A stretch of DNA of 64,000 nucleotides from Nitrosopumilus sp. GTDB taxonomy: Archaea > Thermoproteota > Nitrososphaeria > Nitrososphaerales > Nitrosopumilaceae. The notes under the pieces are model-generated. The model was not told the DNA's origin, did no database searches, and worked only from the letters and a program-made list of their open reading frames with translations. Where the stretch lies: the NCBI GenBank assembly GCA_965224195.1, contig OZ245040.1, forward strand, positions 160,001-224,000, in the 5' to 3' direction. Positions 44,020 to 63,805 of the stretch are shown here, one piece after another; position 1 is the first letter of the stretch, and every line of letters begins with the position of its first letter. The position numbers and the translations under genes were made by a program.

Positions 44020-45735
44020 TTGGCATCTATGGGAATGCAGGCAACCTCAAAAGGCAATATGCCAGTTGTTTTGCTAAAAGAAGGCGGTACTGAAACTAAA
44101 GGACGAGAAGCCCAAAAAAATAACATTGCAGCAGCCAAAATTGTTGCCGAAATTGTTCATACCAGTCTTGGTCCAAGAGGCATGGATAAAATGCTAGTTG
44201 ATTCCTTGGGTGACGTTACAATTACAAATGATGGCGCTACCATTCTAAAAGAAATTGATGTTCAACATCCAGCAGCAAAAATGCTAGTTGAAATCTCAAA
44301 AACTACTGATAATGAAGTAGGAGATGGTACAACTTCTGCTGTTATATTAGCAGGTGCTTTACTTTCACAAGCTGAAACATTAATTGATCAAGATGTACAT
44401 CCAACAATTATTGTAGATGGATATAGAAAAGCTGCAAGAAAAGCAAAAGAATACCTTGAAGATATTGCAGACACAATTACAGCTAATGATAAAAATATTC
44501 TAAATAAAATTGCAAAAACTTCAATGCAAACTAAATTAGTTAGAAAAGACTCTGATCAATTAGCAGAGATTATTGTAAAATCAATTCTTGCTGTTGCAGA
44601 AAAAGATGGTGAATCTTTTGAAGTTGACATTGATGATATTAAAGTAGAAAAGAAAACAGGTGGTTCTATCAAAGATTCTATGATTATTCAAGGTATTGTT
44701 CTTGATAAAGAAATTGTTCATGGAGGAATGCCAAGAACAATTACCGATGCTAAAATTGCATTAATCAACACTGCATTAGAAATTAGTAAAACTGAAACTG
44801 ATGCTAAAATTAACATTTCAAATCCTCAACAACTAAAATCATTTTTAGATGAAGAAAATAGAATGCTAAAAACAATGGTTGACAAAGTAATTGGTTCTGG
44901 TGCTAATGTAGTATTATGTCAAAAAGGACTAGATGATATGGCTCAACATTATCTTGCAAAAGCTGGTATAATTGCTGTTAGAAGAATTAAAGAAAGTGAT
45001 CTTACTAAACTTGCAAAAGCAACAGGCGCTAGAATAGTTACTAATCTTGATGATCTCTTTGAAAAAGATCTTGGTATTGCTGAAACTGTAGAAGAAAGAA
45101 AAATTGAAGAAGACAAATGGGTATTTGTTGAAGGATGTAAACATCCAAAATCAGTAACATTACTTCTTCGTGCAGGCTCACAAAGAGTAGTAGATGAGGT
45201 AGAACGTTCTGTTCATGATGCTTTGATGGTTGTAAAAGATGTGATTTTAAAACCTCAAATTGTAGCAGGTGGCGGTGCCCCTGAGACATATGCAGCGACC
45301 AAAATTCGTGGTTGGTCTAAATCTTTAGAAGGTAGAGAGCAACTTGCAGCAGAAAAATTTGCTGATGCATTAGAAGAAATTCCAATGGCACTTGCTGATA
45401 ACGCTGGAATGGATCCAATTGATACTCTTACACTTTTACGTTCTAAACAACAGAAAGGTGAAAAATGGACTGGAATTGATGTAATGAAAGCAAAGATTGG
45501 TAATATGAAATCAAGTGATATTATTGAACCACTTACAGTTAAACTACAAATTGTTTCAGCAGCTGCAGAAGCTGCATGTATGATTCTTAGAATCGATGAT
45601 GTTATAGCTACTCAAAAATCTGCAGGTGGACCTCCTGGTGGAGAAGGCGGAATGCCACCTGGAATGCCACCTGGAATGCCACCTGGAATGCCACCTGGAA
45701 TGGGTGGTATGCCTGATATGGGCGGAATGATGTAA
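44020..45735 (+). CDS. ths: Thermosome (group II chaperonin) subunit
   Basis: [29 protein letters not shown], Gly/Met tail. Confidence 0.96.
45649..45702. repeat. 12-bp tandem repeat ggaatgccacct x4.5 (GMPP)
   Basis: Identical units in the thermosome C-terminal tail. Confidence 0.9.
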
Positions 45736-45789: not shown

Positions 45790-46068
45790 TTGAATCAAAC
45801 AACATCCAAAGCGCTTACTGGATTCAAGTACATTTACCTAATTGCCTTTTTTACATTACTGGCAGGATTATTCCATCCACTTATCACTAACACTAGTTTT
45901 GATGGAGTGATTAGTGGAGTATTGATATTATTTATAGGTCTTGCCGGTGGGGTTTTACTATACAGAGCTGCAACATCTGAAAGTAAAAGAGTAATTTTTC
46001 TAGGAAGTGGGTTTACCTTAATGGCTATTTCATTATACTATATTTTTCAATTTACTGGAAGAGCTTAA
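45790..46068 (+). CDS. Small three-helix membrane protein
   Basis: Three hydrophobic segments. Confidence 0.72.
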   Translation: MNQTTSKALTGFKYIYLIAFFTLLAGLFHPLITNTSFDGVISGVLILFIGLAGGVLLYRAATSESKRVIFLGSGFTLMAISLYYIFQFTGRA

Positions 46069-47537
46069 ACATCAAAATACAGATAAAATTCGTGTGGATG
46101 TGGTCTGATGGCTATCTCCCGTTGATCTCTTCTTTCTAATTCTATAATTTTATCAATTACATCATTTGTGAAAATTGTGTTAAGGTATTTTCTATCACTT
46201 TCTAATTCATCTAATGCTTCTCCAAGACTTTTTGGAAGAACACCAATTCCTCTTTTTGCTCTGTCAGATTTTGTCATCTTGAAGATATCGTCACGAACTT
46301 CAGGTCCCGGATCCATTTTCTTCTTCACTCCATCCATTCCTGCTGCAGTTACAGCTGCAAATACAAGATATGGGTTTGATGAAGGATCAGGTGCTCTAAA
46401 TTCAAGCCTCTTAAGATTAGCATAATTTTTCCCTTTGAGATGTTTTGGAACTCTGACTATTGCAGAACGGTTTCCAGAACTCCATGCAATGTATGCTGGA
46501 GCTTCATATCCTGGAACTAATCTGTGATATGAGTTAGTTGTAGGATTACAAATAGCAGATAATGATTTTGCATGATTAATGATACCGCCACAAAAGTATC
46601 GTCCAAGTTGGCTTAATTCAATTTCATCGTCTGCATCATAAAATGCATTTAGATTATCCTTCCATAAACTAACATTAACATGCATTCCAGAACCAGAATC
46701 CATTGCAATTGGTTTTGGCATCATTGTTGCAACTTTTCCATATTTTTGTGCAACATTTCTAATAACAAATTTGTATGATTGTGCAGCGTCAGCAGCATTT
46801 GTCATGCGATCATACTTGATATCAATTTCACATTGACCTGCTGTTGCTACTTCGTGATGGTGATTATCACATAAAATTCCAAAATTTTTATTGAGAATAT
46901 TTACACATTCATTTCTATATGGTGTAAGAGTATCTGCTGGAGTACTTGGGTAATATCCCTCTTGTAATCCCATAGGATAACCATTACCTGATTGATTCCA
47001 TGGAGCCTCTTTTGATTCAATAGAATATGATTGACCTTTGTAAGGAGTTAGAACATCCCAATGTACTTTATCAAATACAAAGAATTCAACTTCTGGACCC
47101 CATGTACTATAATCAAATCCTTGAGTTTTGATATATTCTTCAGCTTTTTGAGAAATTCCTCTTGGGTCTCTTGATAATCGTCCTCTATCTTCACCCCAAT
47201 AGACATCACATAGTAGTCTAGCAGTTTTATTTTCAGTCATCCATGGAATAATTGCAAATGTATTTGGATCAGGTTTTAAAAGTAAATCTGAATCATTAAT
47301 GCTGGCAAATCCAATAATAGATGAACCATCTAATTTTGGTAATCCATCTCTCATTTGTTCTGGAGTGAAGGTATTTGCTGAAATTGTAGTATGATGAAAA
47401 TGACCTGTAAGACCTGTAAATTGTAAATCTATAAACTGAATTTCTTCATGTTGGATTCTCGAAAAAACTTCGTCAGAGGAATATCCTATTGGAATTGCTT
47501 TACCGTGGCTGACTTTATATGGCAATTTATACTTCAA
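46065..47537 (-). CDS. glnA: Glutamine synthetase type I (copy 1)
   Basis: DGSSI, GPEVEFF, HHEVATAGQCEI, MPKP..DSGSGMH, RLVPGYEAP, NRSA, RLEFRAPD; start uncertain by a few codons. Confidence 0.95.
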   Translation of the reverse strand: MKYKLPYKVSHGKAIPIGYSSDEVFSRIQHEEIQFIDLQFTGLTGHFHHTTISANTFTPEQMRDGLPKLDGSSIIGFASINDSDLLLKPDPNTFAIIPWMTENKTARLLCDVYWGEDRGRLSRDPRGISQKAEEYIKTQGFDYSTWGPEVEFFVFDKVHWDVLTPYKGQSYSIESKEAPWNQSGNGYPMGLQEGYYPSTPADTLTPYRNECVNILNKNFGILCDNHHHEVATAGQCEIDIKYDRMTNAADAAQSYKFVIRNVAQKYGKVATMMPKPIAMDSGSGMHVNVSLWKDNLNAFYDADDEIELSQLGRYFCGGIINHAKSLSAICNPTTNSYHRLVPGYEAPAYIAWSSGNRSAIVRVPKHLKGKNYANLKRLEFRAPDPSSNPYLVFAAVTAAGMDGVKKKMDPGPEVRDDIFKMTKSDRAKRGIGVLPKSLGEALDELESDRKYLNTIFTNDVIDKIIELERRDQREIAIRPHPHEFYLYFDV

Positions 47538-59050: not shown

Positions 59051-60793
59051 TTATTCTTCTTCGCCACTACCGCGACCAATATCCCCAATACCATATTTGT
59101 CAATAGCCTCATTTCTCTTATCTTCTAGCTTATCGATCTTTTCTTGTTCGCGTTTTTCATCTCCTTGGTATACTGTTCTAATTGGCCATGGAATTCTAAT
59201 ATCATATTTCTTAAATTCTTCGTACATGATCATCCTCATATCTGTTTTAGTTTTGAATTGTGCACCATAATTTCTGACATATACTAATAATATAAAATCT
59301 AATGCAGAATCATTAAAATTATTAAACCTTACAATTGGTTGATTAATATCAACATGAATATCTTTATCACAACCACAACTTGGTTGGTTATTTTTTAGGT
59401 ATGGACATCGAATTTGTCTAATTAGATGTCCACCCTTACCATCAACGACTTCATTCATTGCACGTTTCCCAATTTTTATAAGAATAGCTGAAACTTGTTT
59501 AGGATCATTAAGATATGAAACACCTACCTCAACAATAGCAGGTACCATCTTTATTCCCTGTGTGTAGTTGATTACCTGTGCACTGACTAATTGTCTTGTT
59601 GGAATTATTGCAATTGATTCGTTTAATGCATCTCGAATATAGGTAACTCTAGGCGTAATTTTGTGTACATATCCATTATAACCTGTATCAAGTTTTACAC
59701 GTTCACCTTCGACAAATATCTTATCTTTTCGAATCATAATATATGCAAAATAATTCTGCATAGTCTCTTGTAATGCCAATCCTATCCCAATTGCCATTCC
59801 TCCTGTAGCTGTAGCAAGTACAATCAAGTCTACTCCCCACCATGCAACAACTCCTAAAATTGTCGCAATAAAAATTCCTATTGGAAGAATTTGTTTTGCA
59901 GACTTAGGAATTCCCTCTTTTTTCTTTTTTGCATATCCTGCAGGACGAGAACTTGGAATTAGTGGTTCAAAGCTATTTGATCTTTTTTCCTCTCTCCATA
60001 CATCAATTGGAAATATTTCATCAGGTTTTGCACCTGGTTTTAACTTTCTACCCGATTGATTATTACCGGTAACACAGTTTTGATAATATTTGTCATATTT
60101 TGTACGTTCTGACTGTTTCCACTCTTCAAATGGTTTATCAACTAATTTTTCATATCCACCAATTGGATTTCCTTTTGTTGTACGAAATTGCTCCAATTGT
60201 AACATTCCTTCTTTTCTTTTGAGCATCTCTTTGAATTTTTCTTCATCTATCTCTTCTGGAGTGACTTTTGGTGGAACCCACTTGTACAATTTAGGGAATA
60301 GGTTATCTTTATCATCAACAAATCCTCTCATTTCAAACCAAGCATCAAAATCCTCTTTTTCTTGTTCACGTTTCTCACGTTTGGTAAGAGAAATTGGAAT
60401 AAGATGAGAAATCGTGTAACCAATTACCAAAATGTTGAAAGTATTGAGAATCTTTGCAAATACTTCTTGAGGAGATATCTCTTCATCTCCAACTATCGTC
60501 AAGTCTTCTCCTACCAAAATTCCATTTTGTATGTAAATATTGATTATCGTAATAAACACAATTGCAAAAACTGGAAGAACTGCTCTTCGTAGAAATCTTG
60601 AGGCATGTGGTCTTTGATAATAGAATTTCTTTGAACCTACCCAAGATGAAAATTTCTTATAACCAACAGTTATTCCAATCATCCCTACAATCATTATCAA
60701 AAATGTAATTTGAAGTGATTCAGATGATGCTAAAAGCTGTGAAACGGTTTCAAATTCCCCTGCAGAAATTTGTGATATCTCTTCCTCAGCCAT
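59051..60793 (-). CDS. mscS: Mechanosensitive channel, MscS family, with large inserted soluble domain
   Basis: AIGIGLALQETMQNY, GERV, IIPT, VGVSY, IRIPWP. Confidence 0.88.
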   Translation of the reverse strand: MAEEEISQISAGEFETVSQLLASSESLQITFLIMIVGMIGITVGYKKFSSWVGSKKFYYQRPHASRFLRRAVLPVFAIVFITIINIYIQNGILVGEDLTIVGDEEISPQEVFAKILNTFNILVIGYTISHLIPISLTKREKREQEKEDFDAWFEMRGFVDDKDNLFPKLYKWVPPKVTPEEIDEEKFKEMLKRKEGMLQLEQFRTTKGNPIGGYEKLVDKPFEEWKQSERTKYDKYYQNCVTGNNQSGRKLKPGAKPDEIFPIDVWREEKRSNSFEPLIPSSRPAGYAKKKKEGIPKSAKQILPIGIFIATILGVVAWWGVDLIVLATATGGMAIGIGLALQETMQNYFAYIMIRKDKIFVEGERVKLDTGYNGYVHKITPRVTYIRDALNESIAIIPTRQLVSAQVINYTQGIKMVPAIVEVGVSYLNDPKQVSAILIKIGKRAMNEVVDGKGGHLIRQIRCPYLKNNQPSCGCDKDIHVDINQPIVRFNNFNDSALDFILLVYVRNYGAQFKTKTDMRMIMYEEFKKYDIRIPWPIRTVYQGDEKREQEKIDKLEDKRNEAIDKYGIGDIGRGSGEEE

Positions 60794-60923
60794 ATTTAAC
60801 CACCATTCTAATCAAATTCATGTCCTAGAATACAAACGTTAAGACATATTATTATTAAATTCGAAAAATATTATGCGTAACTAGTATGCAACCTTTAACA
60901 AGGGTTTTCACATTATTTACAAA

Positions 60924-62270
60924 ATGACCTATCAAGAATCAGTATGGGATGATTCACCATCACTCAAGTCTTATACATTAGCAAATTTTCGTACTCTTCC
61001 ACAAATTCAAAACCTTGGTGAAGAAATACAATTTGAAATGGAAGTTGTAGGAAATGTCTTACCATTTAAAGCAAATAATTACGTTGTTGAACAATTAATT
61101 GATTGGAATAATATTCCAAATGATCCAATGTATGTTTTGACTTTTCCTCAAAAAGGAATGCTAAAACCGGAACATTACAAAAAAATGGAAACAACATTAA
61201 AAAATAATTCTGATAAAAAAGAAATAGCAAACATAGCAAATGAAATTCGTTTACAATTAAATCCACATCCAGCAGGACAAATAGAGCTTAATGTTCCAAC
61301 ATTAAAAGATGGAACTAAACTTTACGGAATGCAGCATAAATACAAAGAAACTTGTCTTTTCTTTCCTAGTCAAAGTCAAACTTGTCATGCTTATTGCAGT
61401 TTTTGTTTTAGATGGCCACAATTTGTTGGAATGGATGAAATGAAATTTGCTATGCAAGAAGGTGATCAACTAGTACAATACGTTACAGAACATCCTGAAA
61501 TCAGTGATGTACTTTTCACCGGCGGTGATCCAATGATTATGAAAGCAAAAGTATTTTCAAAATATATTGATACTATTATTGAATCAAAACCTCAAAATTT
61601 AAAAACGATTAGAATTGGAACAAAAGCTCTTTCTTATTGGCCTTACAAATTTTTGACTGATTCAGATTCTGAAGAAATGTTGGATGTATTTAGAAGAATA
61701 ACTGATAGTGGATTACATCTTGCATTTATGGGCCACTTTAATCATCTTAATGAATTATCTACAGAAGCGGTAAAATCTGCCATCAAAACAGTGAGAAAAA
61801 CTGGTGCAGAAATTCGAACCCAATCTCCTCTTTTAGCACACATTAATGATGATGCTGACATGTGGGCAAAAATGTGGACTAAACAAGTTCAACTTGGTTG
61901 TATACCATACTACATGTTTGTTGTAAGAGATACAGGTGCTCAACACTATTTTGGAGTTCCATTGGTTAAAGCATATGAGATTTTTAGTAAAGCATATTCT
62001 TCTGTTAGTGGATTAGCTAGAACTGTTCGTGGTCCTAGCATGTCTGCAACTCCAGGAAAAGTGCAAGTAGTAGGAACATCAAAACTAAATAATCAAAAAA
62101 TACTCGTTTTACGATTTTTACAAGGAAGAAACCCTAACTGGGTCGACCAACCATTCTTTGCAAAATATGATGAAAATGCTATCTGGTTAGATGATCTAAA
62201 ACCTGCATTTGAAGAAAAATTCTTCTTTGAAGACGAACTTGATGTTATCAAAGCATCAAAGATGAGTTAA
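60924..62270 (+). CDS. KamA-family radical SAM / PLP 2,3-aminomutase
   Basis: HKYKET, CHAYCSFCFR (CxxxCxxC), VLFTGGDP, IRIGTK, HFNH, PYYMF, PGKV. Confidence 0.88.
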   Translation: MTYQESVWDDSPSLKSYTLANFRTLPQIQNLGEEIQFEMEVVGNVLPFKANNYVVEQLIDWNNIPNDPMYVLTFPQKGMLKPEHYKKMETTLKNNSDKKEIANIANEIRLQLNPHPAGQIELNVPTLKDGTKLYGMQHKYKETCLFFPSQSQTCHAYCSFCFRWPQFVGMDEMKFAMQEGDQLVQYVTEHPEISDVLFTGGDPMIMKAKVFSKYIDTIIESKPQNLKTIRIGTKALSYWPYKFLTDSDSEEMLDVFRRITDSGLHLAFMGHFNHLNELSTEAVKSAIKTVRKTGAEIRTQSPLLAHINDDADMWAKMWTKQVQLGCIPYYMFVVRDTGAQHYFGVPLVKAYEIFSKAYSSVSGLARTVRGPSMSATPGKVQVVGTSKLNNQKILVLRFLQGRNPNWVDQPFFAKYDENAIWLDDLKPAFEEKFFFEDELDVIKASKMS

Positions 62271-62359
62271 TTTCAACAAATTTTATAATTTACCTGACTA
62301 ATTTGACAATTCTAACTTACAAGATAACATTAGTAAACTAATTTAGAATCAATATCAAA

Positions 62360-63805
62360 TTGAATTCAGATCAAGTATTACAGACTATTCAAGACGAAAA
62401 TATATCGTTCATAGATTTTTGGTTTGTAGATATTTTTGGTGAACTCCATAATGTTGGAATGCCAAGCTATGCAATTGGCAAAAATAGTTTTGTAAATGGT
62501 CTTGAAAAATTAGATGCAAGTTCAATTGTTGGTTTTAAATCTGTAAATAACTCTGATATGATTTTAATGCCTGATCCAAAATCATTCAAAATTCTTCCTA
62601 ATGATTATGATCCAGGTAATAGAAAAAATGCAAGAATTTTTTGTGATCTTTATGATGGAAGTACAAGCAAGGAATCAAGATACACTAGAGATTCTAGAGG
62701 TATAGCTTTCAAAGCATCAGAGAAATTAAAAGAATTTGGATTAACTCATACTAATTGGGGTCCTGAGATAGAATTTTTTGTTTTTGATGCAATCAATGTT
62801 TATCCATCTCCGTATGCAGCAACTCATTTTGGAGGAGGTTCAGGTTATTCAATTGAATCCAAAGAATCCCCTTGGGCAAAAGGAAATATTAGTACTGCAA
62901 TTGATATCAAAGAAGGGTACTATCCATCACAGCCAAAAGATACTCTTAATGGTTTTAGGAAAGATGTTTGTGAAGATTTATACAATTATTTTGGAATAAA
63001 AATTGAAGCTGAGCATCATGAAGTTGCAACTTCTGGTCAATGTGAAATCAATTTAGTTTATGATGAAATGATTACTATGGCTGATAATGTTATTGCAGTT
63101 AAAAATTTAGTAAAAGTTAAAGCTAAGAGAAAAAATAAAGTTGCAACCTTTATGCCAAAACCAATTTTTGGCGATAATGCATCTGCTATGCATACACATC
63201 AAAGTCTATGGAATGAAAATAAAAATGAAATGTACGATCAAAATGATGATGTCGCACAAATGAGTCAAATTGGTAGATATTATGTTGGTGGAATTCTAAG
63301 TCATGCTTCAGCATTATGTGCGATATCAAATCCTACAACAAATTCATACAAACGTCTTGTTCCTGGATTTGAAGCACCAGTCAATGTTTGTTGGGGATTA
63401 GCAAATCGTTCTACAGCTATTAGAGTTCCAATGTATAATAGAAATCAAGAAAAAAGTAAGAGAATTGAATATCGTGTACCTGATCCAACTGCAAATATCT
63501 ATCTTTTAGAAGCTGCATTATTACTCGCAGGACTAGATGGAATTAAAAATAAAATCGATCCCGGTGATCCAGTTGAAGAAAATGTCTATAAACTTTCTAC
63601 AGAAAAGAAACGAGAATATAACATTGGATCTTTACCTGTATCTTTGAAAGGCGCATTAGATTCTTTGTCTAGTGATTCAAATTTCTTGATAGATGTTTTC
63701 ACAAAAGATTTTCTAGATGCATATTCTGAATTAAAATATAAAGAATATACTGCATTTGCACAAACCCCTACAGCCTGGGAAGTTTCAATGTATGCAGATG
63801 CATAA
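62360..63805 (+). CDS. glnA: Glutamine synthetase type I (copy 2, divergent)
   Basis: DASSI, GPEIEFF, HHEVATSGQCEI, MPKP..DNASAMH, RLVPGFEAP, NRST, RIEYRVPD. Confidence 0.9.
   Translation: MNSDQVLQTIQDENISFIDFWFVDIFGELHNVGMPSYAIGKNSFVNGLEKLDASSIVGFKSVNNSDMILMPDPKSFKILPNDYDPGNRKNARIFCDLYDGSTSKESRYTRDSRGIAFKASEKLKEFGLTHTNWGPEIEFFVFDAINVYPSPYAATHFGGGSGYSIESKESPWAKGNISTAIDIKEGYYPSQPKDTLNGFRKDVCEDLYNYFGIKIEAEHHEVATSGQCEINLVYDEMITMADNVIAVKNLVKVKAKRKNKVATFMPKPIFGDNASAMHTHQSLWNENKNEMYDQNDDVAQMSQIGRYYVGGILSHASALCAISNPTTNSYKRLVPGFEAPVNVCWGLANRSTAIRVPMYNRNQEKSKRIEYRVPDPTANIYLLEAALLLAGLDGIKNKIDPGDPVEENVYKLSTEKKREYNIGSLPVSLKGALDSLSSDSNFLIDVFTKDFLDAYSELKYKEYTAFAQTPTAWEVSMYADA

Follow-up and report, generated by a model that had tools for sequence, protein, structure and literature searches.

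A candidate β-glutamate osmolyte module in Nitrosopumilus: a KamA-like aminomutase linked to an MscS-like channel and a second glutamine synthetase

A 64,000-nucleotide stretch of the genome of Nitrosopumilus sp. (assembly GCA_965224195.1, contig OZ245040.1, positions 160,001 to 224,000; hereafter the window) carries, between its positions 59051 and 63805, a gene for a KamA-like radical S-adenosylmethionine (SAM)/pyridoxal 5'-phosphate (PLP) aminomutase, flanked by a divergent gene for an MscS-like channel and a downstream gene for a second glutamine synthetase (GS), GlnA2. On balance, we favor the view that these genes form an osmolyte module combining β-glutamate synthesis, MscS-mediated release and an accessory step catalyzed by GlnA2. 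The aminomutase would convert L-glutamate, by a C2-to-C3 shift of its amino group, to β-glutamate, the main organic solute of Nitrosopumilus, and the divergent 580-residue MscS would act as an emergency valve that lets solutes out when the external salinity falls. GlnA2, apparently an aminomutase-dependent GS paralogue, would have as its favored role the ATP-dependent amidation of β-glutamate to zwitterionic β-glutamine, presumably an optional step lost in many lineages.

The aminomutase gene (positions 60924-62270, + strand) encodes 448 residues and is defined by its open reading frame (ORF), its motifs and a fold model. It is separated by an 89-bp spacer carrying a conserved element (62271-62359, no strand) from glnA2 (62360-63805, + strand), which starts with TTG and encodes a type I GS paralogue of 481 residues matching TIGR00653. 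On the other side, a 130-bp candidate divergent promoter region (60794-60923, no strand) leads to the channel gene (59051-60793, - strand; 580 residues), called as an ORF with PF00924 and PF21082 matches. An initial annotation of the window had described an aminomutase gene followed 89 bp on by a second glnA and divergent from an mscS gene, and all three ORFs lie exactly at the positions that it gave. It had also made its proposal depend on a conserved linkage of these genes; the same arrangement is indeed seen again across genera of the family Nitrosopumilaceae, which argues that it is not due to chance.

By sequence, the aminomutase is a distant member of the KamA superfamily. Its best NCBIfam match is TIGR00238 (KamA family; 122.4 bits, under the cut-off of 199.2), and it scores far below every NCBIfam equivalog cut-off tried (lysine, arginine and glutamate aminomutases and EpmB). 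A homologue search returned only Nitrosopumilus-like proteins, annotated as 'lysine 2,3-aminomutase' or 'KamA family', and the sole solved relative detectable by sequence is the lysine 2,3-aminomutase (LAM) of Clostridium subterminale (2A5H; E 4e-19, ~20% identity). An AlphaFold model computed with 40 family sequences (predicted local distance difference test score, pLDDT, 92.5; predicted template-modelling score, pTM, 0.90) has the same enzyme as its only strong fold match, with an E-value of 5e-18, 394 aligned columns and template-modelling (TM) scores of 0.61/0.67, the runner-up reaching 9.3e-06.

The cluster motif CxxxCxxC (C154/C158/C161) aligns with C125/C129/C132 of 2A5H and, together with a GGD motif (G200-G201-D202) and K379, is invariant or nearly so among 40 aligned family members. 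K379 falls on LAM K337, which we take to be the PLP-binding lysine, when the register is continued gaplessly from the alignment end (A365 = C323), and R163 aligns with LAM R134, presumably the α-carboxylate ligand, in a gapless register with 2A5H followed by counting. The predicted LAM fold, the cluster motif and the PLP lysine indicate that a KamA-type catalytic apparatus is present. The two proteins differ at the distal end of the pocket: in the gapless register, R335 and S372 of the archaeal protein fall on LAM D293 and D330, two residues that we assume to bind the ε-ammonium group of lysine. This exchange would turn the distal pocket from negative to positive, as an acidic side chain such as that of glutamate would need. 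Of 62 full-length aligned rows, 35 retain R335 and 49 retain K379, and a sub-branch of the aminomutase subfamily has Ser at position 335. The archaeal protein further differs from LAM by ~28 extra N-terminal residues and by not keeping the Zn-site cysteines, since the position of LAM C268, presumably one of these, is an Asp and its C-terminal region is devoid of Cys. An apparent in-frame TAG in the aminomutase of one genus is, in the one genome translated, an artifact: the aligner had run past the natural stop.

We consider it quite likely that the aminomutase makes β-glutamate from L-glutamate, as the initial annotation had suggested, based on the predicted charge swap in the pocket, the gene context of a Streptomyces homologue described below and the following observations. 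In N. maritimus SCM1, β-glutamic acid exceeds every other identified metabolite in abundance, at ~730 mM intracellularly, and its level in seawater particles rises with ocean depth (Heal et al. 2021, PMC8269262). The aminomutase is the only KamA-family gene of the genome, the next match scoring 20.5 bits. The AblB acetyltransferase, which the initial annotation had not seen beside the locus, is lacking altogether: TIGR03827 has no match at E <= 0.001 anywhere in the 99.85%-complete genome. No ectoine synthase exceeding its cut-off was detected in the genome either. Bacterial eam genes have been associated with Na+ riboswitches as osmoprotectant genes, and an osmolyte role has reportedly been proposed in methanogens too, for which a glutamate 2,3-aminomutase was published in 2022 (Tunckanat et al.). 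Our literature search found no paper tying a gene or an aminomutase to β-glutamate in these archaea.

The aminomutase belongs to a subfamily that extends well beyond archaea. Of 1.84 billion cluster representatives searched, 3542 match it with E <= 0.001, including 325 with E <= 1e-30, and many of the matches are full-length and 30-64% identical. None of ten representatives scanned exceeded any NCBIfam cut-off, which suggests a large uncurated branch. Homologues are present in 48 records of annotated plasmids, with the best matches, from Actinomycetota and Burkholderiales, 44-52% identical over ~93% of the length. One of these, on a plasmid of Streptomyces sp. (46.5% identity over 93% of the aminomutase length), sits between type I polyketide synthase (PKS) genes, next to genes for a PLP-dependent enzyme, an AMP-binding enzyme and a hydrolase of the proline iminopeptidase family; it has in common with the archaeal proteins the motifs QHKY, CHAYCxxCFRW, GGD, (E/V)RDTG and GLARTVRGP(S/V)MS..PGK. 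This setting resembles the incednine cluster of Streptomyces, one of the macrolactam clusters with a 3-aminobutyrate starter. There β-glutamate is an intermediate, supplied to the PLP-dependent β-glutamate decarboxylase IdnL3 by the radical-SAM enzyme IdnL4, which is regarded as a glutamate 2,3-aminomutase, a role confirmed by knockout (PMC11284099). Elsewhere, an Amycolatopsis homologue adjoins a Glu/Leu/Phe/Val dehydrogenase, a PLP aminotransferase and coenzyme A (CoA)-ester enzymes, and further homologues occur in non-ribosomal peptide synthetase (NRPS) and type III PKS settings. One 464-residue representative (P0135) consists of an aminomutase fused to a 2Fe-2S ferredoxin domain, possibly a built-in reductant. 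Among six long representatives, none looked methanococcal by composition when inspected by eye, and a genome scan for one of 608 residues (P0102), guessed to be methanogen-type, gave a single Phycisphaerae locus with uninformative neighbors.

Compared with characterized enzymes, the proposed reaction and its solute are known, and the enzyme would be of another, unassayed subfamily than the clostridial glutamate 2,3-aminomutase Eam (TIGR04368) and apparently also than the methanogen enzyme, from which it is set apart by description. All of these belong to the same superfamily and share the proposed conversion of L-glutamate to β-glutamate. Work attributed to Ruzicka and Frey in 2007 reportedly found Lys and Asn in clostridial Eam in place of the two Asp of LAM, and the methanogen enzyme is said to carry an N-terminal extension of ~160 residues, which the archaeal protein does not have. 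Relative to IdnL4, whose product is a polyketide starter unit and whose neighbors are PKS genes, the archaeal product would be a bulk cytoplasmic osmolyte, and the neighboring genes encode a channel and a GS. The dedicated channel and the modified GS that appear to accompany the enzyme would be new relative to the known systems.

The aminomutase is present in 91 of 121 family genomes (76 of 95 high-quality ones), one of the 91 being a fragment, and in 25 of 27 genera. These counts include three unpublished genomes (G092, G093 and G077), and the conclusions are the same either way. In a class-wide sample searched at E <= 1e-20, it was detected in 80 of 95 family genomes, plus the window's own, and in none of 55 genomes from 12 other families; within the window's genus, 39 of 39 other sampled genomes have it. 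In a quick tree, which is unrooted and has unresolved deep branches, the archaeal aminomutases form one supported clade amid bacterial relatives. From this family-only pattern and the bacterial relatives, we infer a single acquisition by the ancestor of the family.

Several observations weigh against β-glutamate as the product. The aminomutase scores just 80.8 bits against TIGR04368 (cut-off 650), and its pocket has Arg and Ser vs the Lys and Asn reported for clostridial Eam, the same charge change obtained with other residues. Orthology with IdnL4 would rest on the gene context of one Streptomyces plasmid. No enzyme of this subfamily has a reported in-vitro activity, and a review states that the in-vitro activity of IdnL4 was not observed (PMC11284099). 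Two other subfamily members have settings that hint at other substrates: a Rhodococcus homologue clusters with ATP-grasp enzymes and a SidA-type monooxygenase, and an 882-residue protein (P0008) joins the aminomutase with a domain of L-lysine/L-ornithine N-monooxygenases (PF13434, E 2.5e-100). The RDTG signature of the archaeal aminomutase is kept in both. Because the genomic settings vary in this way, it is uncertain that one substrate holds for the whole subfamily. About 30 family genomes, including whole genera (g9, 0/5; g25, 0/5), have no aminomutase, and the co-occurrence counts used throughout come from related genomes of one family, which overstates their independence. The enzyme might then act on another amino acid (aspartate, glutamine, ornithine or arginine) for another product, with β-glutamate arising by a different route, and an older proposal for methanogens has β-glutamate made by a CoA-dependent route (PMC1224877). 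We nevertheless regard this as unlikely: an Arg in place of the Asp facing the distal group of the substrate suits an acidic side chain, the residue aligned with the α-carboxylate-binding Arg is kept, the PKS-embedded Streptomyces homologue has the same signature, a very high β-glutamate pool needs a dedicated enzyme for which the genome offers one aminomutase candidate, and the links to two different MscS channels, described below, suit a bulk solute. A true lysine 2,3-aminomutase making β-lysine, as the source annotations have it, appears very improbable. LAM is the best fold and sequence match, yet both Asp that we take to bind the ε-amine are replaced (R335, S372), the score against TIGR03820 (lysine 2,3-aminomutase, AblA/KamA) is 105.6 bits vs a cut-off of 525.4, the genome has no AblB, and the presumed Zn site is not kept.

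The channel protein matches PF00924 (30.3 bits vs a cut-off of 20.2) and PF21082 (26.5 vs 21) and stays below the NCBIfam equivalog cut-offs for MscS, MscK and MscM (26-41 bits). It comprises N-terminal membrane helices, a Lys/Glu-rich insert, an MscS pore and β-domain (residues ~289-445) and a C-terminal domain (453-534). This long MscS type occurs in 77 of 121 family genomes (E <= 1e-40). In 76 of them it is accompanied by the aminomutase; no aminomutase was found in the remaining one, G059, whose assembly is 91% complete and has GlnA2 at a contig start. Among the 30 best loci, 27 have the long MscS as divergent neighbor of the aminomutase, as do 9 of 17 loci that are more distant. In three aminomutase-positive genomes from two other genera, all without the long MscS, the order is an RHH (ribbon-helix-helix)-like protein, aminomutase, DUF432, a 279-residue canonical MscS and GlnA2, and a Na+/H+ exchanger gene on the opposite strand adjoins, and converges on, GlnA2. 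The 279-residue and long MscS are 25% identical over the pore region and non-orthologous. The recruitment of two different channels to the same enzyme points to a functional tie to a bulk solute. Taken with the co-inheritance, which supports the link between channel and aminomutase drawn in the initial annotation, it makes it likely that the channel is functionally coupled to the aminomutase, most likely as its release valve.

Other features of these loci are recorded here. DUF432 (PF04254, E 7e-23), possibly a module member, lies with the 279-residue MscS between aminomutase and GlnA2 at L034:5388-7056, L035:5889-7489 and L036:4113-5725. Where the long MscS is missing, a conserved protein of 176-185 residues adjoins the aminomutase (L035:3505-4062, - strand; L034:3041-3595; L036:7312-7866; L039:2771-3301); its N-terminus looks RHH-like by eye, it has no significant Pfam match, and it is a possible regulator. 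In G110, of the window's genus, the aminomutase (L050:5339-6730, - strand) has neither channel nor GlnA2 beside it and adjoins a TnpB/IS605 OrfB-type gene (PF07282, PF01385); GlnA2 lies ~600 kb away, in what looks like a transposon-associated rearrangement.

The window also contains the conventional glnA reported in the initial annotation, at positions 46065-47537 (- strand), which lies outside the module and serves here for comparison. Its product, the housekeeping GlnA1 (490 residues), is 44% identical to GlnA2, and both pass the TIGR00653 (GlnA) cut-off of 429.15, with 540.2 bits for GlnA1 and 510.9 for GlnA2. GlnA2 scores 239.3 bits against NF045547 (γ-glutamyl-polyamine synthetase and GS-like amide ligases), below the cut-off of 650, and keeps D50, S53 and Y179 of the ammonium site. 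We mapped residues onto the Salmonella typhimurium GS (1F1H) in a sample of 13 GlnA2 and 20 GlnA1 sequences. All 13 GlnA2 keep D50, S53, E129, E131, Y179, E212, E220, N264, H269, H271, R321, E327, R339, R344, E357 and R359; with these site residues all conserved, GlnA2 should be an active, ammonia-using ligase. Three substitutions, G51A, G265A and G267A in S. typhimurium numbering (A53, A274 and A276 in this GlnA2), are present in 13 of 13 GlnA2 and 0 of 20 GlnA1; the first sits in the D50-S53 loop and the other two in the N264-H269 loop, which we take to contact the α-amino group of the substrate. The motif changes pointed out in the initial annotation are thus real, GlnA2 reading KLDASS and DNASAMH vs KLDGSS and DSGSGMH in GlnA1. 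One point needs correcting: GlnA1 is itself not canonical NGSGMHxH, all 20 sequences having Ser or Ala in place of N264 and Asn in place of H271. Orthologues are 73-81% identical for GlnA1 and 57-83% for GlnA2, which evolves faster. The GlnA1 N-terminus is ~15 residues longer than that of GlnA2. A third GS type (L076, G091:C70:21600-23450), ~49-51% identical to GlnA2, combines Gly at position 265 with Ala at 267 and a Ser in place of H271, and a similar copy in G085 has an in-frame TAG.

All 121 family genomes have a GS match. The GlnA2 counts here and in the next paragraph are among the matches listed: of the 121 genomes, 66 carry a GlnA2-type gene, 64 of these with an aminomutase as well, and 28 have neither gene. 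The two GlnA2 genomes without an aminomutase are incomplete assemblies, and in each the GlnA2 gene sits where a contig starts. Where both genes are present (64 genomes), 48 genomes have them adjacent and 4 within 5 kb. This distribution, nested in that of the aminomutase, fits an enzyme that uses the aminomutase product, and a methanogen GS, the type I enzyme of Methanohalophilus portucalensis, reportedly serves osmolyte chemistry by amidating β-glutamate to β-glutamine (PMC1224877); there a single GS is described as doing both jobs, vs a separate linked paralogue here. That GlnA2 makes β-glutamine is plausible, at less than even odds.

The roles of both neighbors can be read otherwise. For GlnA2, an ordinary α-glutamine synthetase isoform under separate salt or nitrogen control, not acting on β-glutamate, has slightly less than an even chance; it would supply glutamine as an osmolyte or nitrogen buffer, or rebalance a glutamate pool drained by β-glutamate synthesis. 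GlnA2 passes the GlnA equivalog cut-off and keeps the glutamate, ammonium, metal and ATP site residues, including the N264 and H271 lost in GlnA1, and since these two are kept as in ordinary bacterial GS it could be an ordinary α-glutamate enzyme. The gene has been lost repeatedly with the aminomutase staying: in 27 of the 91 positive genomes the aminomutase stands without GlnA2, of which possible remnants persist in four, and in one genome of the window's genus GlnA2 is truncated by an internal stop. It lies elsewhere or on another contig in 12 of the 64 genomes with both, and it has its own conserved upstream element. We found no report of β-glutamine in these archaea, in a search outside which the supplementary metabolite tables of PMC8269262 lay. 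In Halobacillus halophilus, transcription of glnA2 increases ~4-fold with salinity and the gene serves glutamine/glutamate osmolyte synthesis (PMC2412884); this second glnA is similarly set apart from nitrogen-assimilation control, and its product is α-glutamine, whereas the paralogue here carries G51A/G265A/G267A and is linked to an aminomutase. The frequent loss, the separate element and the Halobacillus precedent keep the isoform explanation alive. Such a general isoform need not show the close association with the aminomutase or the adjacency seen here, and the invariant Gly-to-Ala changes lie in the D50-S53 and N264-H269 loops, where a β-amino substrate would differ exactly at the presumed α-amino contact. 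The channel gene, for its part, could be a mere syntenic neighbor kept by descent with no functional tie, as the genomes are related, divergent neighbors often persist, and 15 aminomutase-positive genomes, among them the three with the 279-residue MscS, do not have the long channel. This seems decidedly unlikely, given that among the 30 aminomutase-negative genomes the long channel occurs only in one incomplete assembly and that the three loci without it carry a non-orthologous small MscS within the cluster. In N. maritimus, mscS is reportedly co-transcribed with the ectoine genes (ectABCD-mscS, attributed to Widderich et al. in 2016), which would likewise couple osmolyte synthesis to an MscS-type valve in the same archaeal group; the solute and enzymes differ, and here the channel gene is divergent and its product unusually long (580 residues).

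The intergenic regions contain conserved elements that may serve as promoters or operators. The divergent spacer contains two related elements. One, the conserved AACCTTTAACAAGGGT (60890-60905), faces the aminomutase and forms a partial inverted repeat (AACCTT / AAGGGTT); its TATA-like TTTAAC precedes the aminomutase ATG by 25-30 nt. The other, GAATACAAACGTTAAG (60828-60843), faces the channel gene. Alignment of 36 such spacers gave the consensus.TG.AAC.TTTAACAA.G, conserved at >= 80% (at least 80%), and the AACCTTTAACAAGGGT element probably acts as a promoter. AACCTTTAACAA occurs once in the 2.07-Mb genome, and the aminomutase promoter element is thus unique there. In the aminomutase-GlnA2 spacer, GlnA2 has a candidate promoter or operator in the element TTAC-N9-TTAGTAA (62317-62336), which precedes its start by ~23 nt; the 31 spacers aligned (24-104 bp) share the core C.TAC...TTAGTA.A. 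No wider regulon is evident, as the genes near the 68 genomic sites of the looser core TAACCTTT, or near the 13 of the GlnA2 palindrome, form no coherent set, and neither element is found in the upstream region of GlnA1. Only one RNA-labelled sequencing run holds part of the stretch (share 0.11). Its contigs, 90-99% alike, reach into all three genes and account for 21 of 30 bins; they show neither transcription, its level nor its strand, the sample may contain DNA, and GlnA1-like sequence follows in some GS pieces.

The outer neighbors of the module are PRPP (phosphoribosyl pyrophosphate) synthetase-like, methyltransferase-like and RNase Z-like ORFs, named by eye, and the genes downstream of it are apparently unrelated to it. 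Elsewhere in the window, a thermosome-like chaperonin ORF (44020-45735, + strand) has a C-terminal tail of Gly/Met/Pro-rich repeats.

Overall, the interpretation offered in the initial annotation is partly supported: the analysis establishes how the genes are built and linked, which residues they conserve, the modelled fold and the distribution, and it is from these that the substrate and product of the aminomutase, the role of the channel and the substrate of GlnA2 are deduced. A joint reading of all these elements is possible and rather doubtful: GlnA2 would be the first GS paralogue specialized for a β-amino acid, with the G51, G265 and G267 changes to Ala retuning the amino-group pocket; marine ammonia oxidizers could switch the pool between anionic β-glutamate (with K+) and zwitterionic β-glutamine as salinity and nitrogen supply dictate; the dedicated long MscS would vent this pool; and the marine family's ancestor would have taken up the whole module from bacteria in a single event.

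Archaea of the Nitrosopumilus type rank among the ocean's most abundant cells, and the module described here offers the best candidate genes for making and managing their β-glutamate. A gene for β-glutamate would allow this solute to be traced in metagenomes and metatranscriptomes and would be a marker of the family's salt adaptation, and the uncharacterized IdnL4-like subfamily would gain a simple primary-metabolism member. If GlnA2 does use β-glutamate, it would show how small changes retune a glutamine synthetase to a β-amino acid.

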